A stretch of DNA of 64,000 nt, taken from Gekko japonicus (Eukaryota). Shown here piece by piece: positions 6,886-52,515 of the stretch (the first letter of the stretch is position 1; each line of letters opens with the position of its first letter). The stretch lies in contig NW_015167655.1 in NCBI RefSeq assembly GCF_001447785.1, forward strand, positions 13,602-77,601, written 5' to 3'. Both the position numbers and the translations under genes were made by a program. The notes under the pieces are model-generated. The model was not told the origin of the DNA, searched no databases, and saw only the letters and a program-made list of their open reading frames with translations.

Positions 6886-7957
6886 AAAGGGTGCATCAAG
6901 GCCGGCCGTGGGATCGCCGGCGCGTCCTTCCGCCAGCGCATCCCCGGCTCCTGGCCGAACTGCGCATGCTCAGACATGCGCAGTTCGGCAGCCTCCCGCT
7001 CCCGACTGTCGCTTCCTCCCCGGCATCTGATCGTGCCGGGGAGCAACGGCGCCGCGGCTCAGGGGATCCGTGGGATACCGCCGCGGCGTCTCTATTTTGG
7101 TGCGGCTTTTAAAAGCCGCACTTTGCCCGGTTTTTTTCCTGCCGTGTGGCAGGGACCTCAGTCGTCTAAATACCAATACTTCTAAGTACTAATTACTGGA
7201 GGGTATGTGAAATAACAGTGGAAGACTAAAGCCTCTGTAGCATTTATTCTGCGCTTGGTAATCCTGAGGAAAGACAAGATGTCCTTCAGGCTCCTTCTTG
7301 CCAGGTTCTAAGATTTCCTGAGATTCCGAAGACTTCCTCAGGTATTGCTCACACACTTTGAAGTCCATTTTCAGTGAAGAAAAATCTCAGTTATGAACTG
7401 TGTGGCCAAGACTTGAATCTCTACTTTTTGTGCTCGCACAGAATTGTAGCGTCCACGCAAAATTAAGTACTATCGTGGGTGTAGACATCTTTCGCTGTAT
7501 ACCTGTGGGCCGTTCTTCCCGGCCTTAAAGGTCTCTCAGCTCACGGTGGTGTGGACAGGTCTCCTCTTCTGGCAATTCTCTTGTGGTCCAGGGCAGCATC
7601 CAGCTAGGACGTGGGGCCTCCGTAGCAGACCTTTGGAGGCAGGACACAAGACGTTGGGGTGACAACTCCACCTTGGGGAAATCCCAGGAGATCTGGGGGT
7701 AGCGCACTGCTGGGGTGGCTCAGCGGGGATGTGATCTCGCGACAGGACTTCTGTTCCTCCTAGACTCTATGGTATCTGAAGCTGCCATGCCCTCCAGGGG
7801 ATCTGATCACTGTAGTCCGGGGATCAGTTGTAATTCTAGAAGAACTCCAGGCTCCAGCTCAAAGTTGGTAACCCTATTTAAGAGGCAGGCAGCTGTGGCA
7901 CTGTAGAACTGTCTGCGTCACTTTCCTACCTGCCCTCCAAGGGTCCATCTATCCTAC

Positions 7958-8682
7958 TCAAACTGTGGTCTCATACTCCATCATGACCTTAGGGCTGGGG
8001 GCCAGGCACCGCTTGCGCGGGGGCTGGCCGCCCCCTCTGTGGCATTCCCCACCCTGGCAAGTGCTGAGCTCAGGTTGAACGGTGGCCATGTGGATGCCAT
8101 GCTCGCAGAAGACCCGCTGGACTCGCTCCACCACAGCCTCAAAGGTGGCATCGTCGAAGCAGTATACCTGCGCCGTGGCCACCAAACTGCCCGGGCCATC
8201 CAGCTGCCAAATGTGGAGCTCCCGCACAGCCGCCACGCCTTCCGTGGCGCGCAGCCGCAGCTCCAGCAGCTGCAAGTCCAGGTCCTCTGGAACGGCCTGC
8301 AGGAGCACCATGGCGGAGCCACGGAAGGCCGGCCACAGCCAGAGCGGCAGGGCCACAGACACAGCCACGGCCAGCCCAGGGTCCAGGTAGAGCAGCCAGC
8401 AAGGGACCCGCGTGTCTGGCAATGGCTCAGAGACGGGCCAGGCCCAACATGGGCGTCTGGTGCAGTGCCCGAAGCAGGACGCGTGACCCAGACACGGAGT
8501 CCACAGGACGTGAAGAGTGAGCGAAGACAAAAGGACAGCTGCAGGTCCCAAGCAGGGCACCATCCAGTCAAAACACAGGGCTCGCCACAGTCCAGAGTTG
8601 TCCACAGGTGACACGAGGCCGGAGTCTGAGGGTTCCTCTAGCCAGACCCAGCTCTTGGAGGAGGATTCATTTCCCAGAAGAT
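7958..8682 (-). CDS. SLC30A1/ZnT1-like cation diffusion facilitator, terminal coding exon (TM5, TM6, cytosolic C-terminal domain)
   Basis: Acceptor ...ctccctcctctacAG|AT at 8682, then an open frame to TGA at 7958. Motifs PCWLLYLDPGL, SAMVLLQAVPEDLD, LRATEGVAAVRELHIWQLDG and FCEHGIHMATVQPE match recalled ZnT1 PCWVLYLDPTL, SALILLQTVPKQID, LRNVEGVEEVHELHVWQLAG and FHNHGIHATTIQPE. Confidence 0.85.
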
Positions 8683-9277
8683 CTGTAGAGGAGGGAGAAC
8701 AAGAAAACTGAAATGGAGGAGGAGTTTATTTATTAAAAATATTTCTTAGCTGTCTTTCTTTCACATGGAGCTCGAGGCAGATCACAATATTAATAAAATA
8801 CACCAAATATTTTGCCAGGTGCCTTCCTCCTGCCTGCGGGGGGATTTGGGGGGTGTTCCAGGGGTGGGCGGAGACCTTGGTGATGCACTGACATAACTTC
8901 CGGAGGTCACATCATCGCATTGGTGTCGTTGGGGTGACACTCTACTTTTTGGGCAAAACTCTATGGTAAAAACGGCTACAAACCATAGAGTTTTGCCCCA
9001 AATGTAGAGCATTGCCCCTGACGTGATGACATCACTTCCTGAAGTGACGTCAGCATGTTACCAACATCGCTTTGGGGCAGGCTGGAGCCCGCAAAAACAG
9101 AGGATTACCCACCCTGACTGGGAACTTAGCAGGCTTAAAAATAGATTATGCAAAAAAAAACAACACATGAAAAACCTTTAAAATCACAACTTTGGACTGC
9201 TTTAATCAAATGCAGTTCTAAATAAAACTGTCTCCAGCTGCCTCCTAAAGATCGAAAGTGATGGGGGCAGGTGCGCC

Positions 9278-9555
9278 CAGGCTTACCAAGTACTTACCGT
9301 GATTCAGCGGGGGACACATACTTCTTCCCAGGACCAGTCCCGCGGGGAAAACAGACGCGCTGCACCATGCCGTCGCCAGGAAGTGACGCCGAGTGACGCT
9401 CTGGCAATGGGGCTGGAAACTCGATGGTACCATCGAGTTTCCAGCCCCATTGTCAGAGCATCGCCCAGCGTCACTTCCTGGCGATGGCATGGTGTGGCGT
9501 GGGTGTGTTACAGGGAGGAATGTTCCGGCCGGGGATCATGTACTTGGTAACCCTA
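9278..9555. mobile_element. Fold-back hAT-like MITE
   Basis: TIR cagg(c)ttaccaagtac / gtacttggtaacccta; 8-bp TSD ggtgc(g/a)cc; central 48-bp perfect palindrome. Confidence 0.8.
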
Positions 9556-11009
9556 GGTGCACCTCCCTGGGGAGGTTGTTCCATAATCGTAGGAGCTACC
9601 ACAATCAGTCTCAGAAATGAATACAGAAGAACAAGGCACATAAGAACAGCCTTGTAAGATCATATCTAAGGTCCATCCAGTCTAGCACTTTGCTGCCGAA
9701 AGTGGCTGCCTTTGGGAAGCTCATAAGCAAGGTGTGAATGTGATTTACCTCCCTTTATGCTTTGTTCCTGGGATCTTGTACTCAGAGGGATGCTGCCTCT
9801 GGACATGGAAGTTCCATTTAGCTGTCAGGGTCCTCCATAGACCTCTCCTCCAGCTAACTGGTTGCCATCAAAGCTTGTGGTGGTGAATTTTGTGAGTTAC
9901 TTAGTAGTAGCATTCATGGTATGCAGCCAAAGTCTGTTAACGATCAATTACACAGACATAGAGCATAAAACATGAATCAGAGATAACAATACATTATGTA
10001 TATGTAATAATTACGTATGGTGCGAAAAAGTGCCTTGCTCCTCCATTTTTTGGGGGTATGTGGGGAGGAAAGAAAGGTAAAGCATTTAAAATAGATAAAT
10101 GCAGATTCCCCAAATCAACTTCCATTGGGCAGTCCTGAGTTCTAATCATCCAAGCTGTGATGCTGAAGAAGCAGACCATTTTTCAGAAGGGGGAGGGGGG
10201 GAAAGCAGGCTTGCCTTTTTGGTGGGCATCTGAAGCAAATAATGGTTTTTGTGGCATTTCCTTCTATTTTTTTAAACAATTGTGTCTTCAAGGATTGCAG
10301 CTTCAGAATTACTGGATTGCAGGGTCCAATTGTCTCCTCCCTGCCTGCCCTAAGATTCCAGAAATTCAGTGGCACCATAAAGATCGACAATATAAGTGTT
10401 TGTGAATCAGGGCTCACTTCCTTGGGATCACATCCATAGCAGGTATATTCATGCATATGTGAATGAAGTACTGTCAAGTTGCTTCCAGCTTATGGCAACC
10501 CCGTGCCCAATGCAGGACCAGCCTAAAGCATCTCTGACAAATATTCATCCAGCCTCTTCTTAAAAGCTGTCAGTGAAGGGGAGCTCACCACCTCCCTAGG
10601 CAGCTGATTCCACCTTTGAACTACCCTGACGGTGAAAATGTTTTTCCTAATATCCAGCCGATACCTTTCTGCATGTAATTTAAATCTGTTGCTTCGGGTC
10701 CTATCCCCTGCTGCTGTTTGTAATTTGTAAATCATAATCATTTGTAATTCCAGAACTCCAGTCCCCACCCAGAGGTTGACAGCCCTAGGCGGTCTTTAAG
10801 GTGTGACTGAACTCTTTAATTTTGCTATAGCATACCAGGCCCATAGCCATGGGGGGCATTTGGGGCAATGCCCCCCCCACAGATAGGCACTGCCCCCTTG
10901 GACAAAAACTTAAAGAAAGTTCAGGGAAAATTCAAATGTAATACGTGTGTTGGTGTTCTAAAATGACCCCAGGAACAGTCAGGGAAGCTCCCCAGCATGA
11001 TTGTTTTCT

Positions 11010-11260
11010 CCAGTGATGCTTGTCTTCCCGTAATGTGACCAATGTATGAAAGAGTTTAGTCATTTTAGCTTCTAGGGAGAGTTCAGGCCTGATTTGATCT
11101 AGAATCCATTTATTTGTCCTTTTAGCGGGCCACGGTATGCCTAAAACTCTCCTTCAGCACCACGTTTCAAATGAATCCACTTTCTTCTTGTCAGCTTTCT
11201 TCATTGTCCAACTTTCACACCCATACTTTGAAATGGGGAATACAATGGCACGGATCATCT
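11010..11260 (-). mobile_element. RTE/Bov-B-like LINE fragment
   Basis: cagcaccacgtttcaaatg...cagctttcttcattgtccaactttcacacccatac resembles the antisense RTE/Bov-B 3' coding region. A related tail is at ~1955-2095. Confidence 0.55.
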
Positions 11261-11626
11261 GGATTGCTTCTCTTTGTAACACCTACTTTTTGTTGCTTGT
11301 AACTTCCAGAAGCAATATAACTGTGGTAGATGCTGTACTTCATACAGCCGATAAATTGGGTCAGTATAAATAAACTGCGTCAGAATCAATATAATGACCT
11401 CCAGAATAAATTGGCCAGTTTAAGGGTTGCCAATTCTGGGCTGGGAAATTCCTGGAGATTTGGAGGCGAATCTTGGGGAGGGGAGGGTTTGATGAAGGTA
11501 AGGACCTCAGTGGAGTAGGATGCCATAGAGAGCCCCCTCCAAAGCAGCCATTTTCTTCTGGGCAAATGATTTCTGTAATCTGGAGATCACAGAATCATAA
11601 GGGTTGGAAGGGGCCATAATGACCAT

Positions 11627-11738
11627 CAATGTTCCCTCTAAGCTGTGGAGTCTTGTGACCAAAAATTCTACTTTGTGAGCGACTGGCATGAAAGTTGTGA
11701 GCGAGTGATTTGGCTACTGCATAAGTTAGTTTGCTCTG
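11627..11738. mobile_element. Half copy of the ~205-bp 'CA(G/A)TGTTCCCTCTAAG' hAT MITE
   Basis: Left half matches the complete copies elsewhere in the window. Right half and second TSD are missing. Confidence 0.8.
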
Positions 11739-11864
11739 AGACCCGGTGGCCCGGCTGGCCACCACCTCCACCACAAAGAGGGAGACCGAAAGACAGAACT
11801 GGCCAGCTGTCCAACCTGTTGAGCCCCCAATCCACAGGGACCCCACACTGCTCCAGAACGCCAT
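11739..11864 (-). pseudogene. 5' fragment of exon 1 of the SLC30A1-like gene (N-terminus + TM1), truncated
   Basis: ATG at 11864. QFCLSVSLFVVEVVASRATGS resembles ZnT1 MLALTFMFMVLEVVVSRVTSS. Homology stops at 11739, where half of a MITE begins. TM2-TM4 coding sequence was not found between 8683 and 11738. Confidence 0.65.
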
Positions 11865-17970: not shown

Positions 17971-18239
17971 ATTTGGGTGTGTGTGTGTATGGATTCCGAT
18001 AACCCTTGTGTTCAGTTGAGGGGGGGGTACCAGAGAGGCACTGGTGGGACAATTACTATATTTAATAGCAATGGGACTGGCGTGGCGTGGGAAGCTATAG
18101 AGGTTCAAAAGAAAGAGCAGGAAAAAATTTTCTCCAAGCCTGTTGGCAAGTCCAGAACAAACAAATCAGGGGAGCAAAGACTGAAAGAACGAACGAACAG
18201 AAGACTGGGATCGAAGAGCAGGAAAGAGCAGGTTCGTTC

Positions 18240-20483: not shown

Positions 20484-23400
20484 GTACGTCTCTATCTCTG
20501 CGAAGGGTGGGATACAGATTTGATAGATTAAATATGAAGGGGGTGGGAATCAAGGCAGGGGAAAGGCAGCCCTTTTCAAAATGCTTCCATGATCCTGGGG
20601 GGCTGGAAGTGAAGCTCAGCATCCGAAGCTTAATTCAGGAAGGCACATGGGAGAGAGTTTGTGTGTCTGTGCAGGAAGGTTTCCCTGCTGTCTCTCTGTG
20701 CTTGAGCACACGACTGGGTCTGCAGAAAGCAGTGAGGGAAGCAGAGGGGGAGATTCTGCAGCTTTTTAATGGGTACGGAGTTCTCTGCATCCGTCACTGG
20801 GAAAGTGGAGAGGTGGAACGGGCTTGCACGTGTGCATTGCCAGCTTTTCTCAAGGGAGCCATGAACCCCAGTCCAAATGTGTTTTTGCTGTCCCTTTCAG
20901 AGAGAAGGCACTGGCCCTGACGGGGAACCAGGGCATTGAACCCGCGATGGATTGGTGAGTCATCTGGGCGTGGTTTTTCTGTCTTACATACTCCTCCTCC
21001 TTTTTCGTCCCCTGACCGGTGCGCCTCTGTTCCCTCCAGGCTGATGGAACATGAGAACGACCCTGACCTAGACGATCCATACGTACCACCCCAGGGCCAT
21101 GTGCTGAGCCCCGAGGAGCCTCCTGAGGGAAGGACGCCTGAGGTGGTAGAAGGTGGAACAGGTCAGAGCAAATTGGGATGTGCTGAGGTGGGAGGACTGG
21201 TCTGTGGTAACGTCAGCAGAGAGTCGCCATTACCGCAGCTTGGTTCTTGCCGGCATCTGCCGTGGGCGGAGGGTGTAGAGGTAAATTTGGTTACCATTCA
21301 TGGTTGGTCTTTCAAACTAGGCTACAGCAGTCATGGGCTCCTCTTCCAGTGACTTCAGAAATGTGCAAACAGAAAATGTTGCCTGTACAATTTGGACAGT
21401 CTCTTTTTTTAAAATACGCGTGTATAATTGTCAATTAATTTCCTCACATCTCTTTATATCTCAGTATTGCACATAAAGCACCTCTAGATTTAAACTGCCC
21501 CGACCTGGATAGCCCAGGCTGGTCAGATCTCAGACGCTAAGCAGGGTCAGCCCTGGCTACTATTTGGAGGGGAGACCTCCAAGGAATACCAGGATCATGA
21601 CATGGAGGCAGGCAGTGGCAAACCACCTCTGAACATCTCTTGCCTTGAAAACCCCAATGGGGCTGACATAAGTCAACTGTGACTTGATGGCAAAAAGAAA
21701 AAAAGGATTTAAAGCAAATTAAAACGGCTTTACGTCCGTATGCTGATATGGCAAAAATGAACTCCTGTTGGCATCAAAGAACAGATCTTCAAGCTGACTA
21801 AGGAAGATTTGGTGCCCAGTTGCGAGAAACTCTAGTGGCATTGCCTACAGTCAGGCAGCAAGATTCTGAGGATTCTTAAACTGAGACTTTCGCTACTACA
21901 GGTAGTTCTTGGAAACCTTCTGCCTGTTAAAACAAATGCAGAGGCTCACAGAATTTTGCAGGAGGAAGTCAGTACTAAGCCAGACCCCACAAATCTGTCA
22001 TGTTACTGCTTCTGTTTCTTTCTGAACCTTCTCCCTCACTATCTCAGGCCTGGTTCATCTTAAAGAAAAATCTCACTACCCTTAATATAGGTTACTTATC
22101 AAGTTAGCTAAACACCGTACAAAACATATATTAAAAAGAGATAAGCTCTGCTTAGGGGTCCCAAATCTTTTTGAGACTGTGGGCACCTTGGGAGTCCTGA
22201 CACAGGATGGTGGCCACTGTGGGAGGCGGAGCCAACCACAAAATGGCCACTGCAGGTGGCAGAGAAAGAGACACACACACAAAAGGAAAACCCAAATGCA
22301 TGCAACAGGAAGAGTAATTCTTAAAAATACACTGTAAAAGAGGAGAGAGAGAGAGAGAGAATAAGACAAAACACTATATGGTGGCAGCTTGTGCTGAAAC
22401 CATGTTATTTTAATCTGCTCAGCCAATCAGACCCCCAATACTAACTATAAGATCTGCTGGGCAGCAGCCCCACCTGGCCATACACACTTTCCAAAAACCT
22501 TTGACGGGCACCAGGAAAGGTGTCTGTGGGTGCCATGGTGCCCACAGGCACGATTTTGGGGACCCCTGGCTTTAGAGGCTTACAATCTAAAGAGGCAGCA
22601 GGAAAAGGAAAGAGGACACTAAAGGAAAGGGGGTCTAGTTACAGCATCTCCAGGAGCAGGTTTAGGGAATCCCTTTCTTTGTACGGGGCCCAGAGAAGAG
22701 TACCTTGAGCTAGATGTACCATTGACTGGTGACAGAGCAGGGTTGTGAACTGGGGTATTCTCTAGTTACTCTACGGAAGGGCCTGCAGCCAGTGATTACA
22801 GCCACTTGCTTTGCATGTCTGCAGGAGTCCCCAGATTTTGTTTCCTGGCATCTCATACATAGAAGGGTCTCAGGCAACAGGTAGCTGCAGGAGACTTTCC
22901 CCTGCCTGAGATCCTGGAGAGCTGCTGCCCAATGCTGAGCTGCATGGACCAGTGGACCGACTCTGTCTAAGGCAACTGTCTACATTCAGGGAAGGAGAGG
23001 CAGAGGTTAAAGGTCAGAATGAGGAGAGGAGAGGTACAGTTTTCAAGCACAGTTTCAAGCAACACCTTTGAGGTGTTTGGTGAGGTGTGGACCCAGTTAC
23101 AAGCAACAGAAGAGTTGGTGTTACAAAGAAAGGCATTCAAGACGATTCATGCTGTAGCATTCCCCATCTCAATGTATGGTGTGAAAGTTGGACAATGAAG
23201 AAAGCTGACAGGAATAATTCTTGTCAAATAATGAAGATTTTGTTCCCTGGTCTCTCTCCCCGAACACTCAGCTTTCCCCTTCCGTGGGTCAGAGGATAAT
23301 AAGAGACTTTTCTCTCCGTAGATCCAACGTTAGAGGAGTTAGCTGAGGAAGATAACCGGCGCCCTCTGAGTGAAGAAGAGAAACGGGAGCAGACAAAGAG

Positions 23401-26400
23401 GTAATCATCTGGGCGGGATGTGCGCGCGCGTCTGTTTGTGCATGCAGGTGTGTTTGTTACACTAAGATATATAGCTCTGTGCATGGTAATCTGAATGACC
23501 ACAACAAGGACTGTTGCATTCTGCAACCTTCTTATATTATAGTCTACTTAAGCGAATGTCCATGATTTTTTCATCTTTGGCATCATTCTGCAGTGTCCTG
23601 AGGAGAGCTGTTCAAAGTACCCGGATCTTCCCCCTCTGCAACAGATCTTATCCAGAAACCCCTGTGGCTTTAGAGATCTCAGCAGGAAAAAGCAGGAATT
23701 TGCTGCACTTTTACATACATCAGACAGTGTGGTGTAGTGGTTAGGATCTGGGGGGGGGACATCAGTGCAACTCCCCATCCTGACATGAGGCTTGCAGTAG
23801 AACTTTGGGCCGGTTGTTCTCCCTCAGCCTGACCCACATTGCAGGATTGGTGGGGAAGGGGGAACCGTGTACACCACACAGAGCTCCTTGAAGGGAGAGT
23901 AGGATTAAAAGCGCAGGTTTGGAGGCTCTGAAGGATTTCTGCTACTGGAAGAGATTTCCGTCCATGGCGTGGGATTTCATTCCCTCTTCAGCCCGAAATG
24001 CTGCTCCTGGTGGACAGGGGACCCCCAGGGACAGCTGCGGCGGGGTGGGGGGGGTGAGGTGGATGTCCACAGTCCGAGGTGGGAATCAGCAAAAATGCCC
24101 CCCCCCCCCGAAATCCTGTGTGGGATTCAACCTAATCAGTGTGAGAGCATCTGCTTCGCATGCTTAAGGTCCTGGGTTCAATTGTCAGCATCTCAAGGCT
24201 AGGGAAGACCTCTGCATAATATTTGGGAGAGCTGCTGTCAGGCAAAGCAGACACTACAAAGCTCAGTGTAGAAGTGGAGCTGACTTGGTAGAAGGCAATT
24301 TCACTTGCTCGGGAATTGTGTGTACGACATTGCCAGAGGGAACGATACTAAACTAGATGAACCAACGGCCTGGCTCTGTAGGCGGCTTCTGTCTGACTCT
24401 GAAATGGTTGCATCCCTGGAGGTTGCAGGGAGGGGTCGTGGCTCACTGGCAGAGCATCTGCTTTGCACGCAGAAGGCCTCAGGTTCAGTCCCTGGCGTCT
24501 CCAGTTAAAATAGACCCAGGCAGTAGGTGATGTGGACGACCTCTGCTTGAGACCTTGGAGAGCCACTGCCAGTCTGACTAGACAGTGCTGACTTTGATGG
24601 ACTGATGGTCTCATTCACCCAAAGAGTAATTAACATGTGAAACTCACTGCCGCAGGAGGTGGTGGTGTGGCTACAAGCATAGGGGATTGGATAAATGTAT
24701 GAAACAGGGGTGTAGTGGTTAAGTGTGCGGACTCTAATCTGGGAGAACTGGGTTTGATTCCCCCATTCCTCCACTTGCACCTGCTGNNNNNNNNNNNNNN
24801 NNNNNNNNNNNNNNNNNNNNNNNNNNNNNNNNNNNNNNNNNNNNNNNNNNNNNNNNNNNNNNNNNNNNNNNNNNNNNNNNNNNNNNNNNNNNNNNNNNNN
24901 NNNNNNNNNNNNNNNNNNNNNNNNNNNNNNNNNNNNNNNNNNNNNNNNNNNNNNNNNNNNNNNNNNNNNNNNNNNNNNNNNNNNNNNNNNNNNNNNNNNN
25001 NNNNNNNNNNNNNNNNNNNNNNNNNNNNNNNNNNNNNNNNNNNNNNNNNNNNNNNNNNNNNNNNNNNNNNNNNNNNNNNNNNNNNNNNNNNNNNNNNNNN
25101 NNNNNNNNNNNNNNNNNNNNNNNNNNNNNNNNNNNNNNNNNNNNNNNNNNNNNNNNNNNNNNNNNNNNNNNNNNNNNNNNNNNNNNNNNNNNNNNNNNNN
25201 NNNNNNNNNNNNNNNNNNNNNNNNNNNNNNNNNNNNNNNNNNNNNNNNNNNNNNNNNNNNNNNNNNNNNNNNNNNNNNNNNNNNNNNNNNNNNNNNNNNN
25301 NNNNNNNNNNNNNNNNNNNNNNNNNNNNNNNNNNNNNNNNNNNNNNNNNNNNNNNNNNNNNNNNNNNATTGTCTACTCAGACTGGCAGCAGCTCTCCAGG
25401 ACCTCAGGCAGAAGTTTTCCCCATCACCTACTGCCTGGTTCTTTTTAACTGGAGATGGCAGGGATTGAACCTGGGACTTTCTGCATGCAAAGCAGAGTCC
25501 CTTCCACTGAGCCACAGCCCCTCCATCAGTGGCTATTACCCACAACGTATAGACAGAACACTGTGTATGAGGCAATGATGCTCTGTATTCTTGGTGTTTG
25601 GGGGGCAACAGTGGGAGGGCTTCTGGAGTTCTGGCCCCACTGGTGGCCCCTGGATTTTGACAGCTGTGTGACACAGAGTGTTGGACTGGGGGGGCCACTG
25701 GCCTGATTCAGCACAGCTTCTCTGACACCCTTATGATTCAGTACACGGCAGCTTTGTGTGTGTTCACGTGAGGTTGTCCCATTGCCCCAAACACAGGATC
25801 CTGGAACTCTCTATTAAACGGCCCCGCAAAGGCACTAATGACTGCCCTTAGGGCCCATTTCAAATATCTTCCGTGCTTTCTGGACGTTATCTTGGAAAAG
25901 GGAGATTATTCTGTAAAAGGGCAGGCTTGGGGCAGGGGTTCTGGGAGAGCCCAGGGGGGTGCCAAGTGGCCCTGTGACCCACTCCTCCTCTGCCTGCCCA
26001 GGATGATGGAGCTGATCTCTCAGAAGCAGCGGGAGCGAGAGGAGCGGGAGAAACGGGAGAGCATCGAGCGGGAGAAGCAGCGCCGGAAGCAGGGCCAGGA
26101 GCTCTCCCTCATCCGCCAGAAGCTGCAGGAGGACGAGATGAAGAAGCTGGCGGAGGACAGGCGCAAGGAGAAGATGGAGGAGAAGCTGGCCAAGTGAGAG
26201 CCCTGCGGGGAGGGGGAGGGAACGGCTTAGCCCCCGAGGCGGGGAGGCCGCGTCTACGGGCTGGACGGCAGGAAGCCCAGCTGTGGGTTTAGGCAAAGGA
26301 ATGGGCCGCCGGGGCTCAGGGGAAGAGCAACTGCTTTGCATGCAGAAAGTCCCAGGTTCGGTCCCTGGCGTCTCCGGTGGAAAAGGATCAGGTCATGGGT

Positions 26401-29124
26401 GATGTGAAAGACCTGAGGCCTTGGAGGGCGACTGTTGGTCTGAGTAGGCAGACCTCCTGGCTGTGATGGACCACGTCTGATTCAGCACAAGGCAGCCTCG
26501 TGTCTGTTTCACGTGACGCATTTATGTGGCGAAGGTATTCCCCCCGTTCAGTCTCTGGTATCTCCTGAGAGAAAGATGTCACCACAAAGCAGGACTCACT
26601 GGACCTAACCAGGCTACATCGGCCAAGGGCATAAGGCACCTTCCTGTGTTGCTGCTGGGCAGGAGTTGTCACTTAGTGAAGAGGCACCTGCTTCGCATGC
26701 TGAAGTTAGAGAACAACTTGGACTAAAGCCCGGGAGGGGAAACTCTCCTCTTCCCCTCCTTCTTCCTCCAGAAAGCACCTGCTGGTCTGTGGCTTGCTAG
26801 ACAAAAGCTAGAGTTACGTTCCTAAGCGATCCAGGGCTTGGGGGAGCGAGGGGCTGTCTGGACCAAGGAAGAGAGTGAACGGATTTCTCGCTGTACGTAA
26901 CTCGTCTGCCGACTTAGACCATCCCGAGCCTGCATTTGGAAATGCTGGGTGACCCAACATAATTTCAGTTAATGAGACATTTCTAGTTAACTCTTAGGGG
27001 GTAGGCATGTGGGTGAGGGGAAGGGTAACGGGTGTACTGCGGAGGAAGAGAAGGGAATAGGGCTTTGGGGAGGGGTGTATTGAAGAAGGAGAGAATGTTG
27101 TGACTGGAGGAGCACGGGAGGAAAGACGGCCTGCCTCTCTCCAGGATACTGGACACCTTCCCTGGGCCTTCTGTGTTGGGCGCTGCCGTCTTGGAAGAGG
27201 TTTAGAAGCCACTGAAAAGGCTGATCTCAGTATATGGGAGACTTTGAAATCTAGAGAGACTTGCGTGTCTGGAGGAGGAGGACGGACGGAGAAAAGGAAA
27301 TGCTACTTTATACAGAGACTGATTAAATGTGGAATTGGCTGCCAGAGGATATAGTGATGGCCACAGGAATAAACAGCTTTAAAAGGGGATTAGATAGATC
27401 CACGGAGGATGAGTCTATTAGCGGCTACTAGCCATGCTGACTGTGAGGAACCTCCACTTTCAGAGGCACTAAGCCTCTGAATCCCAGAGCCAGGGGGCAA
27501 CAAAAGGGGCCTCTCTCTGCCCTGTTGTTGGCCCTCCAGAGGAGCTGGTTGAGGCCACTGTGGGAGACAGGATGCTGAGCTAGATGGACCACTGGTCTGA
27601 TCCAGCAGGGCTCTTCTTGTATTCCAGAGACTGAGCCTGACGGGGTAGCGTACTTGTTTTTACAACTGCCTCCATTAAATCTGCTCTTTTTGTCCCCAGG
27701 CAGCGTGTGCGAGAGAAGATTGAACGTGACAAGGCTGAGAGAGCCAAGAAGGTGGGTGTGCGTAGGAAGGGGGTGTTTCTGCTGTTGTTCCTCAGTGAGA
27801 GGGGGAGATCAGAGTCTCTGTGGCTGTGTGGGTCACGCAGTGTGAGACACAACAGGGTTGGATTCAAAGGTTGTTTCCCACTAGTGGGAGGAAGGGCAGG
27901 TGTCGCTGATTCCCCCCCCATGCTGTTCCTGAGCATCCCTTGTCCCCAAGGCACAGCATGCCAGGAACCAGCCAACCCTCCTGCCTTGCAGGTGTGAGTT
28001 ACACCAATGGAAGATAGTTTCAGGTTGAGTAGCCATGTCGGTCTGCAGCGGAAGAGCCAGATTCGAGTCCTGTCGCTCCTTAAGAGACCAACAAGATTTC
28101 CTGAGAGTATCTGATGAAGGGAGCTTAGATTCTCAAAAGCTTCTACCCTGGAAATCTTCTTGGTCTGTAAGGTGCTCGAGTCTCACTTTTCCACTGAAAA
28201 TGACATTTGGATTCAGCATCCAGCCTGCCATTCCCAAAGAGCAGCCAAGGCACTTGCCTGCAAGTAGACCTACTGCCGGAGAAGTGTACTGCAGCCTCCC
28301 ATGTCAAGTGTTGGGTGACAACTTTCCTTTATCTAGAAGATGGACCGATTTGTACGTTAATCCCCCCGCCCCCGAGAGTCTCTTCCACACCCTTCTGGTA
28401 ACTTGTCATCATGCAAAAACAGAACAACCCAAGAAGACACTTCTGCGGCCCAAAGCAGCCTTGCGCAGGGGTTGCCCCTCAGCAGCTCTTTCAGGTGCTC
28501 TGTGAGATCGTTTACTAATGCAGTGGAGACCTGAAATCCAGTGTCATGACAGAACTTGGCTTCAGTACCTTCGGTGGAACTGGGCAGTTCTCAACCAGCC
28601 GATCCATGCTGCTGAATTGTCCTCCTGAGGTCCACTGTGGTCTCTAGTGCCCGGCAGTGATGGCAGGGATCACAGGGATCTGTTCGAATCCTCAGAGGAG
28701 GAAGGATCCACAGAGCCCTGGTGTAGGGGTGGGGAAGAGAGGGGTAGGTGGAGTGGCACCTCCTAGCTGGTGGTGATGCAGAGGTAGGGAAGGCCTCTTC
28801 AGGAAGTTCGCAGTTGTCCCATCTATCACCGCCTTCATCACCTTTTTAGACGGGGCCAGGTTTCCCCTTCAGACAGAGAATGGTGAAGATAGCAGCCAGG
28901 AAGCCCTCGCTAATTGTGGGCAGCTAAAACTGTCCCCCTGCCCTGGGTGATCCAGGCTAGTCCGGTCTTGTCAGATCTCAGAAGCTAAGCAGGGTCGGCC
29001 CTGGTTAGTATTTGGATGGGAGACCAGCAAGGAAGTCCAGGGTCTCTATGCAGAGGCAGGCCATGGCAAACCACCTCTTGCCTTGAAAACCCTATGTCAG
29101 CAGCAACTTGACAACACTTCTCTC

Positions 29125-29164
<40 letters not shown>

Positions 29165-32100
29165 GAAATTGCAAGCGGGAACTCTTCTTTTAACTTTGGT
29201 TGTTTCCCTTAACTTCAAGGGAGGTGCCCCTGTCTGAGCTCAACGTGGTATCGTCTAAAAAAAAAAAGCTTTATAATCCCTTCTGAAAATCACAGCTGGA
29301 GGCCATGCTGTATCCTTGGGAAAGCGCTAGCCCTCCTAGTGGCAGATGCCCTTAGCTCAGGCACTCAACATGCTTGACTCTGGGCCCTAGATTTCACTGG
29401 AAAAAGGGGGCTCCTTCACGGAGTCCTAAATAGACTCATTGACGCTCTGGAAATAACATTGCAAGGAACAGCAGCTTGGGTTGCTTATGCTATCAAGCCC
29501 GGCCTAACAGAACGAATTCAGACCGTTGGTCGCTGATGGCTCCGTGGCTGGATCTGCTGTGCACAGAGCAATGAAAGGGAAACTCTCTGGTCAGGTGGGA
29601 TAGTGTACGGCAGCTTGAATCATTTCCTCTTTTCTCCTTTCTCCAGTTCGGTGGCTGCAGCAGCTCTTCCCAGGCATCCACCCCGCCCGAGCCAATCGCC
29701 CCCGCACCGGTTCCCTCCTCACCTAGCCAGGAGCCCCCTGTCAAGCGAGAGTACGACCAGTGCAGGATACAGGTAATGGGCCAGGGGTGGCCGGGCGGGC
29801 GGGAGGGGAAGGCCTGGAGACTGTGTGACACTCTGCGCGTGCTCTGCTTTTTGGCCAAGGTAGGCTCCCAGAGTCGCTTGCAACCAATGCTAGCCTCACA
29901 AAACAGCTGCGGTAACTGACTTGTACTGAGAGCAGTAAACCAAAGACGATCGTACAGACAGAAGAAGCGAGAGCAGCAAAAGAGGAACTTTGGAGATGGA
30001 ATTGGCTCCAGGCCACCTTGTGGTTAGCGGCATTGTAAGCTCTCACTTCGGTTCTCCTGGTATTTCAGTTGCTGCTGCTGCTGCTTCAGTTAATTTCTGA
30101 GGACCACAGAAGCCGCAAGGGGAAGCGAACACAGGTGCTCGGGCACTACACACAGACCTGATTATGCTGGCTGTCGGGTGGACAAGGGGGATCCAATAGA
30201 TATTGTTTACCTTGACTTCCAGAAAGCTTTTGATAAAGTTCCTCATCAAAGGCTCCTAAGTAAGCTCAAAAATCATGGATCAAAAACTGGCTAATTAATA
30301 GAAAATAGAGAGTGAGTATAAATGGGCAGTTCTCTCAGTGGAGGGGGGTAAGCAGTGGGGTACCGCAGGGATCAGTACTTAGTGTACGGCAGCTTGAATC
30401 ATTTCCTCTTTTCTCCTTTCTCCAGTTCGGTGGCTGCAGCAGCTCTTCCCAGGCATCCACCCCGCCCGAGCCAATCGCCCCCGCACCGGTTCCCTCCTCA
30501 CCTAGCCAGGAGCCCCCTGTCAAGCGAGAGTACGACCAGTGCAGGATACAGGTAATGGGCCAGGGGTGGCCGGGCGGGCGGGAGGGGAAGGCCTCGTGAC
30601 TTTTCTGGCGGAAGATGGGCTCTGCTCAAGACAAATGCTCTTGTCGAGGTGACTCTGGAGAGGCGAGGCTTTGCTGTTCGCCAGCCTCCCCCTGGTTGAA
30701 AATGTTTATTTTAGCTGTGTGTGACACTCTGCGCGTGCTCTGCTTTTTGGCCAAGGTAGGCTCCCAGAGTCGCTTGCAACCAATGCTAGCCTCACAAAAC
30801 AGCTGCGGTAACTGACTTGTACTGAGAGCAGTAAACCAAAGACGATCGTACAGACAGAAGAAGCGAGAGCAGCAAAAGAGGAACTTTGGAGATGGAATTG
30901 GCTCCAGGCCACCTTGTGGTTAGTGGCATTGTAAGCTCTCACTTCGGTTCTCCTGGTATTTCAGTTGCTGCTGCTTCTGCTGCAGTTAATTTCCGAGGAC
31001 CACAGCAGCCGCAAGGGGAAGCGCACACAGGTGCTCTGGCACCACACACAGACCTGATTATGCTGGCCGTCGGGTGGAGCTTCTCTTGCCTGGGCTGAGA
31101 CCAAACTGGAAGGGCCATGGCTCAGTAGAAGAATCACAGAGTTGGGAGGGGCCATATAGGCCATCTACATCAACCCCCTGTTCCCAAGTCCCTCAGCCTT
31201 TCATCGTAGGGCTGGGTCTCCAGACCCCTGATCATCCTCGTTGCTCTCTTCTGCACCCGCTTCATTCTATCCACATCCTTTTTTTGAAGTGAGGCCTCTG
31301 GAACTGCACACAGTACTCCAGGTGTGGCCTGACCAATGTGGTGTACAATGGAACTATGACATCTGGCGATTTAGACACTATGTCTTTGTTGATACAAGCC
31401 AAGATCACATTAGCCTTTTTTGCCGCTGCATCACACTGATTGCTCATATTTAGCTTACAGTCCACCCGTACCCCAAGATCTTGTTCACACACACTGGCAC
31501 TCAAATGTGTATCCCACACCCAGTATGCGTGCTTCTCATTTCTGTTACCCAAGAGCACCTGTTCTGCCTTCAGAAGGTCCTGGGCTCAGTCCCGAGCACT
31601 TCCAGTTCAAAGGGTCCCAGATGTCAAAGCCACTTGCTTGTCAAAGGAGACCATGCTGAGCTGAACGGACCGGCGGTCTGACTTGGTGCATGACTGCTTT
31701 GCCCCAGGCCTCTTGCTGTTCCAAGCAGCCCCCGGGAGCAATCCCAGTCATCAAGGGCCAGTGTAAGCCCTGGTGCCGACCTCTCCCGCGCCATGAGTGC
31801 TTTAGGTAGCCTTAAGGGCAGACCACTTCTGGCTTCAGACCTTCCGACTGCAGCCATGTGGAGAGGAGGATACGGATCCACCTGGCAGGATGTACCTTCG
31901 GGACTGTCTCCTACAATAAGTCCCCAGGAGAACCCTGAGATCAGCAGATAATAACCTGCTGGTGATCCCTGGCCCTAGAGGGCTTTCTTGGCTCTGGCCA
32001 TGACCTGGTGGGACTCTCTGCCAAATAAAATCAGGGCCCTGCGGGATCTGATGCAGTTCCACAGGGCCTGCAAGGCAGCGATGTTCCACCAGGCTTTCAG

Positions 32101-35100
32101 CTGAGGACAGCAATGGGAGGTTGAGACCGGCACCCTCTCTTTCTCTTCTGTGGCCCCCATGTACTCCCCCCTGCCCTGCCGTGCAGGACAGCGGTGTGGC
32201 CGACAGAAGAGAAACTGTAATTGCCATTTCGATGGGTTGCATTTTTTGTCTTATTGATGGTTTTCTGTGTCCACTTTTAACTATAAATTGTAATTTTTAA
32301 TGTTTTATCATGACTGAATCACCCAAAGACTTTCCTGCCTCCCCCCCTCCCACTTCTGCCCACTGATCTCCACACAGTGCTGCTCCTGGAGGACACGGGA
32401 TGCTGAGGAATGATACCCGAAAAAGGGGTGTCTGTGCAGGGAAGGGGGAATTGGCGGCAGTTGCCAGTTTAGTCTGGGTCCAGCCCAAGCTCTTCTGCAA
32501 AACCCCGGCTTGGTGTGTGCCCCCCCACCCCGGTGGATGTTTGCTGGCTTAAGACATGACCTCTTTTGCAGTGGCCCCTGCCTTTCCCTCTCCAAGGCTG
32601 GTTGCCGGACACACTTGGAGTTTACAGTTTGAGGTACCAGATCAAAGCTTCTTTGGTTACTTAGGCGTCAGGTGGATTGGAGGAACTGTTTCTCCCTTCC
32701 CTCCCTCCTGATTTATCCCTTTCAGTTCTGCACCAGTGACAGTATTGGTGCCCTGTTAGTTTGGCTGAACGTTCTATTGGTGTCATTAGCAGAGGCCTTT
32801 CTGCTGCTGTCGCATTGATTTATGTTTCCGCATCATTCTCGGAAGCAGCATTGAGAGCTGTCCGAGTATAAATTTTGAAGAGAAGATTACTCTTATTGCC
32901 CTAGCAAAATCTTTCAGGTGCCAAAGGGGAGCCTGGGCAAAATAAATGCCTGGACGCTTCTCCTCGAATCCCTTTTACCAGATATTTTGACCTCTCCACA
33001 CCTTTCATCTTGTTCTATTTTACATTCACTTCAGTTTTACCATAGAGTTTACCATAGAGTTTCTGGCACATGAAGCTGCCTTGTACCGAATCAGACCACC
33101 AGTCCATCAAAGTCAGTACTGTCTACTCAGACTGGCAGCAACTCTCCAGGGTCTCAGGCGGAGGACTTTCACACATTACCTGCTGCCAGATTTTTTTTCA
33201 CTGAAGATCCTGGGGATTGAACCTGGGACCTTCTGCATGCCAAGCAGATGCTCCCTGCTTTACTGCAGAGCTGGTGGCAGAAGCCTTGCGCTGATGACCT
33301 GTCCGCATATTGATTCAGTGCGCGAGGAGGGAGACCAAGCATGAGCCTCTCCCTCCACCTCCGTGCCGTTGCCTCATCTGCATGGCGCACATGTGCAGAG
33401 CAGATAGGCCTGCACACACTCCCCTCCCCATGATCGGCAACATTTGGAAAGCGGGCGTCACCGATCACAGGGAGGGACATACGCACAGGCACTCCTTCCG
33501 CACATTTGCACCATGCAGACAGTCGGCCAGTTGCATGGAGTTGGGGCCAGCATCTCTGTTAAGAGAGCTGCGGTGGTTTTTGTAGGTGCTGAAGGCCCTC
33601 CCCCCTTTCCCTCTGGCACACCAAGCCTCCTCAGTCGGCCCGGCCCCTCTTCTTTGACAGGTGAGGCTGCTGGACGGGACGTCGCTCACGCAGACCTTCA
33701 GAGCCAAAGAGCAGCTGGCGGCCGTCCGGCTCTACGTGGAGCTGAAAAAGGACGGTGGCGAGGAGCCCTTCATCCTCCTCACGAGCTTCCCTCGGCGCGT
33801 CTTCACCGAGGAAGACATGGAGAAGCCCTTGCAGGAGCTGGGTGAGTTGGGGACAGCTGGGGGGTGGCTTACAGGGGGGCGGAGGGGGCGGTTCCCCTCT
33901 CCCACTGCCCCAGGTGGGACTTGGGCCTCAGTAGGGCTTGACTAGAGCGAGAGGCTCAGCTTCTCCCTAGTGGCAGCCCTGCCTGCTGTAACTGCGCGTT
34001 AGAAGTCTGGCCCTCCCCCCTCGAGTTCTCCCTTTCGCGTATCCCGACTGTGGGATTCTTCCCTGCTCTAAACCACCCGGACTCATTTCCCCACGGCCTT
34101 TTCTCTGCATCCCAGCAGACTGCGGATCCCCTCCAGGAAAAGGGGGCTTGTTTCTCCCTGTTTTGTAGAGTAAATACGAGAGGTGGATGGACTACAGAAA
34201 TTCTTCAGTTTCCAGTGGCTCTGCCATGTTTGATACTTGCTATGAAAATTGGTGGGGTTGGGGATAGGGATGTGCATTCGGCTTTCCCAAACGAAAAAAA
34301 ATACCGAATAAATACCTGCTGTGGCCGGGGGGGGGGGGGGGGGGCGGGGAAGCAGGGCAGGCATGGAAGCATGCCTGGGCTCCCTGCTTTCCCTTCTCTA
34401 GCTACCCTGGGTCAGCTGACTGGCGGAGAGTGAAATTGACAAAGAAAGCCAAACCGGCTTCCAGAAGGAAAGAAGGCATTTTTAAATGCCTCCCTTCCCT
34501 CCTGTCCGGTATATCAGACCTGAATATATATTTGGGAATACCGAATATTTCCCCAGTCCTGATACTTTACCGGTATTGGACTGGGGATATTCGGCATTTA
34601 CCAATATTTTTTTGGGTCTGATATACCCGAAGCCGAAAAATACCGATTATTATTTTTTTTGCACACTCCTAGTTGGGGAGGTTGCTTGAAGGCTGACATC
34701 TTTGTTATGTCTGAGTAGTGAGGCACAGATGTACGACACTTGACTTAGCTCTGGCAACTCCAGAAGCTGGATATGAGTCTCTTATTGAATTGGTGGAGCC
34801 CACAACCATAAGAGTTGGAAGGGGGCATCTAGGCCATACAGGAAATCCAAAGCTATCGCTTCCCTGGCAGACTGGTTGGCCCAGACTTTGCTTGAAGATA
34901 TCCAGCCCTCCCCACAAATATAATGTAAGGAGTAGCATGGTGTAGCGGTTAAATTGTCGGACTAGGTTCTGGGATATCCAGGGTCAAATCCCCACTCTAC
35001 CGTGGAAGCTTCGCTGGGTGGTTTAAATACACTCTTGGGGGTTTTGCACACATAGGGAAGTTACCCACTGAGTCAAGTTATTGCTGTCTAACCCTGTGAG

Positions 35101-43789: not shown

Positions 43790-43886
43790 GCTTAGAGGCA
43801 CTATTTGCCATCTTGTCTCAATGCCACGCCCAGACGGTGAGGCCAGTGGAGTAGAGGCTCTTGACCCACCGCCCTCCCGCACTTAC

Positions 43887-44082
43887 TGATGGCGAAAGTC
43901 ATCTGGGTGATGTGCCACATATTGGGGGGGATCCCCTGCTGCATGACCCTGCGAGGGCCCAAGTACACCCAGATGCCGGAGCCGATCAGCGCCAGCCCGC
44001 TCAGAAGGCGGCAGCCCCAGCAGGACCCGAAAAGGGGCTTGTGGGGGGCTGGAGGAGCAACCTCTGTGGAGTTGGACGACAT
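43887..44082 (-). CDS. DMAC1: Distal membrane-arm assembly component 1 (TMEM261), coding exon 1
   Basis: MSSNSTEVAPPAPHKPLFGSCWGCRLLSGLALIGSGIWVYLGPRRVMQQGIPPNMWHITQMTFAI versus recalled human ...CWSCRVLSGLGLMGAGGYVY...PPSPWTITQM. Donor CA|GTAAGT. Total 264 nt = 87 aa. Confidence 0.9.
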
Positions 44083-49282: not shown

Positions 49283-49414
49283 CTACTTCTTCCAGGGCCA
49301 TGGTCTCCGTGCCACGTTCTCATTGGTTTCAGCTGCCTCTTTGAGCACTGCCATCACTGCAGCATTCAGCTGTCGCTGCTCGGCCTGCTGCTGAGGGCTG
49401 GAACGAGGAAGTTC
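49283..49414 (-). CDS. UQCC3: Ubiquinol-cytochrome c reductase complex assembly factor 3, coding exon 2
   Basis: ELPRSSPQQQAEQRQLNAAVMAVLKEAAETNENVARRPWPWKK* versus recalled human EMPLQDP...LATLQEAATTQENVAWRKNW. Acceptor ctttctccttccAG. Confidence 0.9.
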   Translation of the reverse strand, partial: ELPRSSPQQQAEQRQLNAAVMAVLKEAAETNENVARRPWPWKK

Positions 49415-50057
49415 CTGGAAGGAGAAAGAGCATGTAAGAAGAGCTCTGCTGGATCAGACTGTCTAGTCCAGAAGCCAACCAGTTGCCCTGGAGAACCAGA
49501 CAGACAGGGCATGAAGGCCAAGGCCTTCCCCTGATGTTGCCTCCTAGGACTGGTATTCAGAGGTTGGCTGCCTGTGTATACGAAGATAAATCAAGATGTT
49601 ATTCTATCTGGGAGCCATGTTATTCTATCTGTAGCAGTAGAAAAGAGCAAGAGTCCGGTAGCACCTTAAAGGCTAACAAAACTTGTGGCCGGGTACAAGC
49701 TTTTCTGGGTCACTGCTCACTTCTTCAGAAAGTTCTTCAGAAAGTTCTTCAGAAAGAAAGAAACTTCTTCAGAAAGTTCCCTTTAGTCACCATGGCTAGT
49801 AGCCACGAATAGACCTCTCCTCCACGAATCTGTCTAACTGGCTTTCAAAACTGTCTGTGCTCACAGCTGTTACTATGTCCTCCAACAAGAAATTCCACAA
49901 AGTATTTACTTGTTGCGTAAAGAAAGAAAAGGGATCCAGAGGAAGGGGGGGGGGTAGGAGCTGTATGATGGGACCAATAAAAACATAAGAACATAAGAGA
50001 AGCCAGTGTTGGGCCAAAAATACCAGGTTCCCTCGGGAGGTCCACCAGTGAGGCCAA

Positions 50058-50216
50058 GATTTGTTGCGAACTTGCAATAAAAACAACATGAGATGCACAT
50101 TTCATTCTCCTTTAATTCTTGTTCCACCACAATCCTGTTTGTTGCGAACTTGCAATAAAAACAATATGAGCTGCACATTTCATCCTCCTTTAATTCTTGT
50201 TCCACCACAATCCTGC
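50058..50216. repeat. Tandem duplication, 2 x ~79 bp
   Basis: tttgttgcgaacttgcaataaaaacaa...ttgttccaccacaatcctg occurs twice. Confidence 0.9.
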
Positions 50217-52061
50217 ATTGCCCCCCATCCTCTTTCAGAGGATCCAACTAGCCACTGGACTGGCAGTATTGCCAGGAAACCAGTGCCAGTCGTGCAGGAC
50301 CACACAGCTCAAGTATTCATGGAGCAGAACCAAACCTTGTGTGCCAAGTTCCTCTCATTCTCTATGGTTGCAGCACCTGACTGAATTCAGCCAGGCCTTC
50401 TGATTGGCTGAGCATTCTGCCGATCATCTTCCTGGGCCAGGTCAACTCTAAATCCTGCTGTTTTGCTGTCACTTCATCGTTGAACAGCTCAACTTTTCAG
50501 GCCTCATGAAGATCAGCTGAAGCAGCTCATATGGGAGAATGTTAAACCCAAAATCTAGGATCTAACCAGATCCTACTGATCATCTCCTAGCCTTACAAGA
50601 GAATGGATCCTAAGCCAGTAACCTCTGCTGACTACAGAAAGGCCTGTTATTCAACAGTAGGACATGAACTCTACATACTAAAAGGTCCCAGGTTCAATAT
50701 CGAACTTCTGTAGATATGCCAAAAACTAAACAACTTTCAGTCAAGGTAGACAGCATCCAGCGCCTTGACATTTACATACATTTATATATACAAAATTGCC
50801 TCCCCTCTAAATGAGCTGGTTTTCTGACACATGAAGTCTCTGCAGTACGCCTTCAAGACAATTGTAAGCCCCAAATGGTCAAACTGAATACATCAGTAGT
50901 TTCCATAAAAGCCTTCATAGTATTCAGGCATGCCAATTTGGAAAGCAAAATTAACTACACCCAGTTAGTAAAACGAGCGTATTTAAATAAATATAGATAT
51001 TGCCAGAACGTCAATACTTTTAGAGAGAAAGACTTGGTTTAAGAAACAAAGCTTTCTACTTTCTGTTCATCCTTATCTCTTACAGAAATGATGTTTAAGG
51101 CTAGTCATAAGAATCCCTTTCTAGGAGGAAGTCCCTTTTAATAAAACTGGATTTCTAATTAAACAGATACTCCACATCCATCACTCCATCCATGCATGCT
51201 CACTGTCTGCTAATTTCACCTATCTCTTCATCTTTGCGCATTACCTCTCACACTGTCAGAGTTTAGGTAGCATGCTCCTTCTTGAGCATGGAGATAGTGA
51301 TGAAGACTGTCAGACTGAGGTATGGGAGACCCAGGGTTCAAATCCTCTCTGCCATGAAGCAGAAAAGTGTGAGAGTCCAGTCATACCTTGAAGACTAGGA
51401 ATATTTGTGGCAGGGGATGAGCTTTCATGTATAACCATGAAACTAGTCACTCTCAGCCTAATCTGCCTCACAGGGTTGTTGTAAGAATAAAACAATGTAC
51501 ACCGCCCTGAGCTTTTCAAAGGATGGTGAAATCAAAAATGTAAGAAACAAAAACCAACATAAAATACAGCTTTAGCAGAATTTTAGAGAACACACACCTC
51601 CCTTGTCACCACTTTAATTTTACACATCACATTGTATTATTGGTCTGTTCTGCTTGATGTGCTGTACTCCAATTTGCAACGACTTTCTAAAGGATGTCTC
51701 TCAGCCCTGAGTTGCCACAAACTGAACTCGGGATCTTCAGTCTGCAAAGCAAGTGGTCCACCACTCCCTCACATAAGGCTGTCTCCCCGGCATAAGCAGG
51801 GTTGCCAACCTCCACGTGGAGCCAGGAGATATCCTAGAATAACAGCTGCTTCCCAGACTACTGCGATCTGTTCCCCTGGGGAAAACGGCCGCTTTGGCGG
51901 GTGCACTCCACTATACCCTGCTGAGCTCCCTGCCCAAACCCAATCCCCAAGGATTTTCGGACCCAGAATCGGCAACCCTAAGTCAATTCTAGCCCTTGGC
52001 GCTCTGCAGCTCCGCCTTTGCTGGCTCCGACCTCTGCGGCCGCTCCGCAGGACCTGCCCAC

Positions 52062-52181
52062 CTTTGCTCTCAACTTCATCTGCTCCTCGTTGGGCGTCAT
52101 CCCCACCCAGAGCGCAATCCCGAGTCCCATGGTCCCCACCATGCCCAGAATCGTCTTCACCACTTGCTGTGTGGACCCCAT
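52062..52181 (-). CDS. UQCC3: Ubiquinol-cytochrome c reductase complex assembly factor 3, coding exon 1
   Basis: Kozak GCCATGG. MGSTQQVVKTILGMVGTMGLGIALWVGMTPNEEQMKLRAK (40 aa; single TM followed by TP). Donor AAG|gtgggc. UQCC3 neighbours UBXN1 tail-to-tail in human. Confidence 0.88.
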
Positions 52182-52334
52182 GGCAGCAGGGCCTGCCAAG
52201 TGGGCAGCAGAGAGAATGCCCGACCTCGACCTCCTGGAGAGGAGCGCGGTGGGGAAGAGAAGAAGCGGAGCACAACCATAGAGAACAGGAAGTCTGTCCC
52301 GACCAGAGGGTCCTGATCGAAGAAATGCAACAAA

Positions 52335-52515
52335 AGTGTGAGTCCAGTGGCGCCTTTAAGACCAACGAAGTTTAATGCAAGGTATGAGCTTTCGTGTGCA
52401 GGCACACTTCTTCAGATATCTGCAGAAGAAGTGTGCTTGCACACGAAAGTTTATACTTTGAATTAAACTCTGTTGGTCTTAAAGGTGCCACTGGACTAAA
52501 AATTTATTCCACTGC
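52335..52515. mobile_element. Penelope-like inverted pLTR pair carrying hammerhead-ribozyme-like motifs
   Basis: Fold-back centred at ~52418; the minus strand reads CTGAAGAAGTGTGCCTGCACACGAAAGCTCATACC. Confidence 0.65.

Follow-up and report, generated by a model that had tools for sequence, protein, structure and literature searches.

The window, by which we mean the whole 64,000-nucleotide stretch of Gekko japonicus DNA analysed here, contains on its minus strand a two-exon paralogue of the zinc transporter gene ZnT1 (SLC30A1), with an open second exon and a truncated first exon, together with neighbouring genes and transposable elements. The features, with the evidence for each, are as follows.

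7243..7248, minus strand: AATAAA, the sole canonical poly(A) hexamer from the stop codon to the N-gap, about 710 bp past the stop
7958..8682, minus strand: exon 2 of the ZnT1 paralogue (tblastn, phmmer, identity to RefSeq model P0057)
8683..8712, minus strand: splice acceptor, a polypyrimidine tract plus AG (8684-8683), phase 1
11627..11738, no strand: half of a ~206-bp miniature inverted-repeat element (MITE) joined directly to the exon 1 remnant, with one terminal repeat left; the deletion junction (comparison with six full copies)
11739..11864, minus strand: exon 1 remnant, ATG at 11864, 42 codons (N-terminus and TM1), cut where TM2 begins (tblastn)
11810..11818, minus strand: phase-1 GT serving as the cryptic donor of the 257-aa RefSeq model, whose intron begins with base 11815 (model compared with window)
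20770..33942, plus strand: UBXN1-type gene, head-to-head with the paralogue, its exons encoding UBA, a coiled coil and UBX (Pfam UBA_7 E 5e-4, UBX E 5e-18; coiled-coil ORF 25772-26197)
43886..44082, minus strand: DMAC1-like first coding exon (Pfam DMAC1_Dmo2 E 2e-21)
49286..52355, minus strand: UQCC3 (second exon Pfam UQCC3 E 1.4e-9; first exon from an ORF by eye)

The Pfam scan covered 140 plus-strand and 59 chosen minus-strand frames, from 298 unmasked frames of at least 50 codons. The gene at 20770..33942 is probably UBXN1, a name taken from the order of its domains. Human UBXN1 and UQCC3 lie at 11q12.3, and human DMAC1 on 9p24. The DMAC1-like gene of the window is situated between UBXN1 and UQCC3, beside another mitochondrial assembly factor, and this position may be the ancestral DMAC1 site. 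Two CpG-rich stretches were also recognized: that at 6886-7100, right after an N-gap of 958 bases and downstream of the paralogue, may represent a repeat or else the promoter of the adjacent gene, and that at 18000-18500, about 6.5 kb from the paralogue ATG, likely comprises the UBXN1 promoter and first exon. Decayed open-frame fragments of retroelement type (12850-13700 and 16950-17450), resembling LINE reverse transcriptase by eye, lie between the paralogue and UBXN1. The paralogue intron harbors two palindromic elements, at 8931-9018 (arms of 37 nt) and 9266-9567 (arms of 98 and 28 nt), both likely other non-autonomous DNA transposons.

Exon 2 starts at 8682 in phase 1 and runs through 241 open codons to a TGA at 7960-7958. 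It encodes, in order, the end of the TM4-TM5 loop, a TM5 without HxxxD, an extracellular loop with five cysteines, TM6, the C-terminal domain (CTD) and the terminal residues E-T-T-V. The initial annotation had described this exon as ZnT1-like, with coordinates that proved exact at the acceptor, the phase and the stop codon. In phmmer comparison with human ZnT1 chains, its translation matched residues 253-423 of ZnT1 (E 1.2e-30); the match to SLC30A10 had an E-value of 1.4e-14. Pfam gave zero matches to exon 2 alone at E 0.01. The RefSeq 'zinc transporter 1-like' protein of G. japonicus (P0057, 257 aa) agrees with the window sequence with no differences. Because the G+C content is 68% and two overlapping frames at this locus are also open, for 234 and 218 codons, an open frame is by itself weak evidence. 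The 240 open codons pointed out in the initial annotation form a real frame, with homology far above chance, but they do not support a working gene here, as exon 1 has lost 128 codons and its donor site. The motif changes that it had claimed in TM5 HxxxD, HELHVW and ATAHI were borne out by alignment with ZnT1 as H251->D, D255->P, H370->R and H387->Q. The Asp at 251 is variable (Gly in four of five other geckos), and H387->Q is nearly gecko-specific, His being present in 30 of 36 orthologues.

The initial annotation had missed the truncation of the upstream exon in this genome. Using the 434-aa Heteronotia orthologue (P0002) as the tblastn query, residues 1-65 aligned to 11936-11739 (76%, E 4e-24) and residues 187-434 to exon 2, with no match between them; the ATG at 11864 corresponds to the start Met of four of the five other geckos. 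The half MITE at the junction is 112 bp long and ends exactly where the exon 1 remnant begins. Six full copies of this ~206-bp element, presumably of hAT type, are present in the window (3949-4154, 37345-37541, 43584-43789, 48536-48741, 55568-55773 and 58276-58481), a density of about one per 10 kb; all six retain both terminal inverted repeats, and five of them have perfect 8-bp target-site duplications. The loss comes to at least about 480 bp, made up of the 128 codons for TM2-TM4, the donor site and the other half of the MITE. As a consequence of lacking TM2-TM4, the window copy does not encode a six-helix domain. When the missing 128 residues of five geckos were searched by tblastn, no match was found in 8683-11738, and the best elsewhere in the window had an E-value of 0.064.

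The 257-aa RefSeq model splices at the weak internal GT and lacks TM1-TM4; in the intact geckos the coding sequence continues across this point with the same residues. Rescue by cryptic splicing was rejected: seven phase-1 GTs exist in the first 275 nt, the best of them fits 6 of 9 consensus positions, and none restores TM2-TM4. Unspliced read-through of the remnant meets a stop after 89 codons. Compared with intact orthologues, the window copy thus bears a disabling lesion, and in this G. japonicus genome it is likely to be non-functional, probably a recent pseudogene.

The loss of exon 1 sequence might instead reflect misassembly, or a deletion that is polymorphic in a species whose gene still works. 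The assembly is a draft with three N-gaps in the window, the five other geckos have an intact gene, and here exon 2, the acceptor, the ATG and the poly(A) signal are all intact. However, no N occurs between 8683 and 11936, the lone second half of the junction MITE was not seen in the 64-kb window, and at the junction unique exon sequence passes into the middle of the MITE with about one shared base. Since a collapse would join two repeat copies, such a junction argues for a true deletion, and we consider error or polymorphism unlikely. Private substitutions in exon 2 number six in the window copy and 9, 7, 22, 8 and 8 in the five intact geckos, so that the remaining sequence has no excess (6 versus 7-22) of the kind expected from relaxed selection. 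The loss is therefore recent or polymorphic, and decay of exon 2 lends no added support to pseudogene status; the open exon 2 reflects past selection.

Intact orthologues exist in many other species. A profile search in which 8000 candidates were scored yielded 53 matches. Names are available for 51 of them, one from a shark (Heptranchias) and the other 50 from squamates or turtles. The five other geckos have full-length proteins of 411-434 aa. No crocodilian, bird, amphibian or mammal occurs among the 51 named matches, an absence that is provisional because 8000 candidates were scored; the loss in mammals proposed in the initial annotation is consistent with it but is unproven. Among the best 150 listed in a representative search, the relatives P0062, P0065, P0072 and P0100 have degenerate sites and an E-T-x-V/I/L end. 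The ESM Atlas returned cation-efflux clusters only, and gave no range.

Site residues were counted in one full-length model per species (36 species: 25 squamates and 11 turtles), with duplicates, partial models and the window's own model excluded. In ZnT1 the transport site, site A, is formed by HD pairs in TM2 and TM5. D47, H251 and D255 are each found in 0 of the 36 reptile orthologues, and H43 persists in 23, being replaced by Gln in all 11 turtles. None of the orthologues therefore has an HD/HD, DD/HD or ND/HD arrangement; both site motifs are kept in 115 of 118 fish ZnT1-type matches. The TM5 HxxxD and the TM2 Asp are thus missing from all 36 orthologues, and the motif loss is therefore not pseudogene decay of the window copy. 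The inner gate residues E78 and N244 are likewise present in 0/36. Position 40, which is Asp in ZnT1 and SLC30A10, is Cys in 30/36 and Ser in 6/36; N127 is His and S259 is Pro in every orthologue. Conserved positions within the membrane include E25 and D317 (36/36 each) and E99 (26/36). In the shark protein, positions 40 and 127 are His and Asn rather than Cys and His. The TM4-TM5 loop contains one to five His in the paralogue against 7-12 in ZnT1, and is not His-rich. H370 of the CTD zinc site is kept in 7/36, and geckos lack both H370 and H387 of this site. The cysteine cluster after the CTD comprises zero to four Cys in reptile orthologues versus five to seven in ZnT1 and shark-side rows.

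Other parts of the protein are much better conserved. Identity between squamates and turtles is 59% in TM3, 65% in TM6, 63% in the CTD core and 70% in the last seven residues; inner TM5 shows 28% identity between these two groups and 10% to ZnT1, versus 100% among ZnT1s. The CTD is about 46% identical to that of ZnT1. Its contact residues, as given for ZnT1 in excerpts of PMC12290082 (L377, T385, T416 and P419), are retained in 36, 32, 36 and 36 of the 36 orthologues, respectively. Five cysteines are found in the TM5-TM6 extracellular loop of 31/36 and of the window sequence, as in 7/7 ZnT1 rows; across all 36 the number ranges from four to six. The protein ends in [ST]-x-[VIL] in 32/36, and a similar motif terminates fish ZnT1s; a T-x-V end may be read as a class I PDZ ligand. 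AlphaFold2 predicted six helices and a CTD for the Eublepharis orthologue (pLDDT 78.6, pTM 0.76), and Foldseek with this model ranked human ZnT1 first (E 3e-18); the predicted fold is partly borrowed, because the 144-row alignment held many canonical relatives. PF01545 is precomputed on intact orthologues. As modelled, these proteins have the six-helix membrane domain and alpha/beta CTD of the CDF/SLC30 family, and in sequence they combine an incomplete site A with preserved dimer surfaces, as in a ZnT6-type protomer.

The long branches of the clade, the loss of site A and of the His-rich loop, the partial loss of the CTD zinc site (H370 in 7/36) and the apparent disappearance from several lineages might together suggest that the whole clade is a functionless ZnT1 duplicate in slow decay. 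We find this barely credible, as against it stand open models of 390-440 codons in more than 30 squamate and turtle species, 106 of 412 columns with at least 90% conservation among 32 orthologues, and a conservation that tracks structure.

Trees were computed from 56 rows (LG+G4) and from 33 rows (LG+C20+F+G4 PMSF), by one search each, with long branches and composition warnings. In the two trees, respectively, the reptile and shark proteins group together with support of 98/83 and 95/82, their clade falls outside ZnT1 proper (91/84 and 96/86), and a vertebrate ZnT1-like clade comprising both excludes the ZnT10-type and invertebrate-type rows (100/100 and 100/99). AU tests, in which ZnT10 and tetrapod ZnT1 rows were assigned by motif, rejected a grouping of the reptile clade with tetrapod ZnT1 (p 0.0008) and with ZnT10 (p 0.006). 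These results uphold the proposal of a third ZnT1-subfamily member that is neither SLC30A1 nor SLC30A10. They do not uphold SLC30A10 as a sister from the same duplication, since the trees place it as an older branch. ZnT10-type rows lie among invertebrate-type rows in both trees, which suggests that the ZnT1/ZnT10 split is older than vertebrates.

As the clade stands beside ZnT1, and nesting with tetrapod ZnT1 or ZnT10 is rejected, it is older than the shark/bony-fish split; the duplication falls after the divergence of invertebrates and before that of sharks and bony vertebrates, with moderate support and long branches. The stem of the reptile clade is about 1.0, indicating evolution far faster than that of ZnT1. 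A duplicate of SLC30A1 confined to reptiles or tetrapods, drawn to the shark protein by long-branch attraction, would fit the long branches and the moderate reptile-shark support. It is nevertheless very unlikely in view of the AU rejection of tetrapod ZnT1 as partner and of the features that the reptile and shark proteins have in common, namely M44->T, D47->G (shared with the squamates) and identical residues at the final six positions. We therefore hold with high confidence that 7958-8682 is the last exon of a separate two-exon sister gene of ZnT1, older than the shark/bony-vertebrate split. The presence of an intron excludes a retrocopy. The initial annotation suggested an origin by whole-genome duplication; the timing fits the early vertebrate genome duplication and the shark member fits the age, so that such an origin is consistent but unproven. 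Human 1q32-41 and 11q12-13 are paralogous.

A group of ray-finned-fish ZnT1-like proteins (P0028, P0029, P0152, P0180 and P0190), two of them named 'zinc transporter 1', lacks D47, H251, D255 and most loop cysteines. It is sister to the paralogue clade with modest support and has M44->T in common with it; the AU test of this group as the bony-fish orthologue gave no rejection (p 0.14), and the group is either the orthologue or another duplicate. P0064 and P0069, which have intact HD/HD, fall on the paralogue side of the tree, which suggests that site A was lost after the duplication.

The role of the intact protein can be considered in the light of experiments on human ZnT1. In excerpts of PMC11051671, efflux was abolished by H43A/H251A, D47A/D255A and D47N/D255N and cut by over half by E78A or N244A, E25 and D317 were required, and TM3 and TM6 were static helices; the dimer forms through TM2/TM3, the CTD and a ZnT1-specific cysteine loop (the same source and PMC11549101, in part). 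[quoted passage not shown] We suppose that an intact paralogue would fold and reach the membrane as ZnT1 does. Zn2+ transport through an HD/HD site would be beyond it, given that the corresponding double mutants of the human protein have no activity and that the inner gate (E78, N244 and inner TM5) has diverged. Through the CTD sheet and the TM2/TM3 face it could form homodimers, or heterodimers with ZnT1, and tune the activity or location of ZnT1 as ZnT6 does for ZnT5; it might also, or instead, retain protein-binding roles of ZnT1 through the CTD and the T-x-V tail. With transport residues lost and dimer residues kept, canonical zinc export appears very unlikely and a dimer-based role likely, and by analogy with ZnT6 we lean slightly towards a non-transporting dimer partner or scaffold as the function of the reptile protein. 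Its fast evolution, together with the lack of crocodilian, bird, amphibian and mammal entries among the named matches, makes this function seem dispensable.

Some conserved membrane residues have no obvious place in a pure scaffold, namely E25 and D317, E99, and Cys40/His127. They could belong to a transporter or metal sensor whose outer cavity holds a soft metal (Zn, Cu or Cd), coordinated by Cys40 and His127 together with H43, E25 and D317. Of the four Mn ligands in SLC30A10, two lie at positions 40 and 127 (D40 and N127; PMC12480533, in part), E25 and D317 are those needed for ZnT1 efflux, and the uniform S259->P change may be read in the same sense. On the other hand, the TM5 partners are gone (D255 in none, Pro at 259), H43 is Gln in all turtles, the shark has His40/Asn127 and the inner gate has diverged, which leaves a rebuilt metal site doubtful. 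In its broader form, the same idea holds that this ZnT goes back to early jawed vertebrates and disappeared from mammals and birds, that Cys40/His127 replaces HD/HD in reptiles, and that the protein serves as a metal-sensing subunit of ZnT1 or a carrier of another metal, tethered by its PDZ-type tail; from the sequences we regard this as a tentative possibility. A dimer partner or scaffold remains our preferred reading, and if true it would mean that a ZnT6-like auxiliary protomer arose a second time, independently.

This gene is already known in many reptiles as an automatically annotated 'SLC30A1-like' entry; what is new is that it is an ancient ZnT1 paralogue without the transport site. It adds a ZnT lineage missed by human-centred counts of ten SLC30 genes, and amounts to a natural separation-of-function ZnT1, in which the transport site is gone and the dimer surfaces, cysteine loop, CTD and tail are kept. 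These features have been retained over hundreds of millions of years. The transport-independent roles of ZnT1 (L-type channel, Raf-1) thereby become directly testable. As the 257-aa gecko model is the rescue of a broken locus, such experiments need an intact orthologue. No description of a distinct clade without site A was found in the openly accessible literature covered, which includes portions of PMC4281218, PMC8706747 and PMC6585022.

Among known systems, the squamate, turtle and Heptranchias models that RefSeq/UniRef call 'SLC30A1-like' or 'zinc transporter 1-like', including the 257-aa model of G. japonicus, are the orthologues themselves; their automatic names imply an antiporter, unlike the site-A-less paralogue, and are unsupported for these proteins. 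The teleost gene slc30a1b is also a second ZnT1-type gene, studied in zebrafish (excerpts of PMC8706747), but identity with it was rejected, as two rows so named fall inside ZnT1 proper and that of Astyanax keeps HD/HD. The Arapaima 'zinc transporter 1-like' protein P0025 was likewise rejected as an orthologue, since it nests in ZnT1 proper. The changes H43->Q and D255->A in P0025 and P0059 show that site A was also lost, separately, in a duplicate of ZnT1 in fish.

ZnT10 (SLC30A10) resembles the paralogue in being a ZnT1-related CDF protein with an altered TM2 ligand, and its Mn-site positions 40 and 127 are newly conserved in the paralogue. However, the paralogue lacks N43, the equivalents of D40, N127, D248 and S252 are all changed, and ZnT10-type rows have only two loop cysteines. 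An SLC30A10 orthologue was therefore rejected on these residues and on the AU test.

ZnT6 (SLC30A6), the auxiliary subunit of ZnT5, is similarly a CDF protomer with an incomplete site A. It belongs to a different subfamily, the best matches of the paralogue being ZnT1, and has lost two ligands where the paralogue has lost three; the partner of the paralogue is putative.

ZnT1 itself is closest in sequence and fold. In common are the cysteine-rich TM5-TM6 loop, called unique to ZnT1 in excerpts of PMC11051671 and PMC11549101, the CTD interface, the C-terminal S/T-x-hydrophobic motif and the two-exon structure, as in carp slc30a1a (PMC4281218, in part). An SLC30A1 orthologue was rejected on the position outside the ZnT1 clade and on the neighbours, which are UBXN1-type, DMAC1-like and UQCC3 here, whereas SLC30A1 lies near LPGAT1, NEK2 and RD3 according to the same carp paper. 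The paralogue differs from ZnT1 in its genomic setting and in having lost D47, H251, D255, D40, E78, N244 and the His-rich loop.
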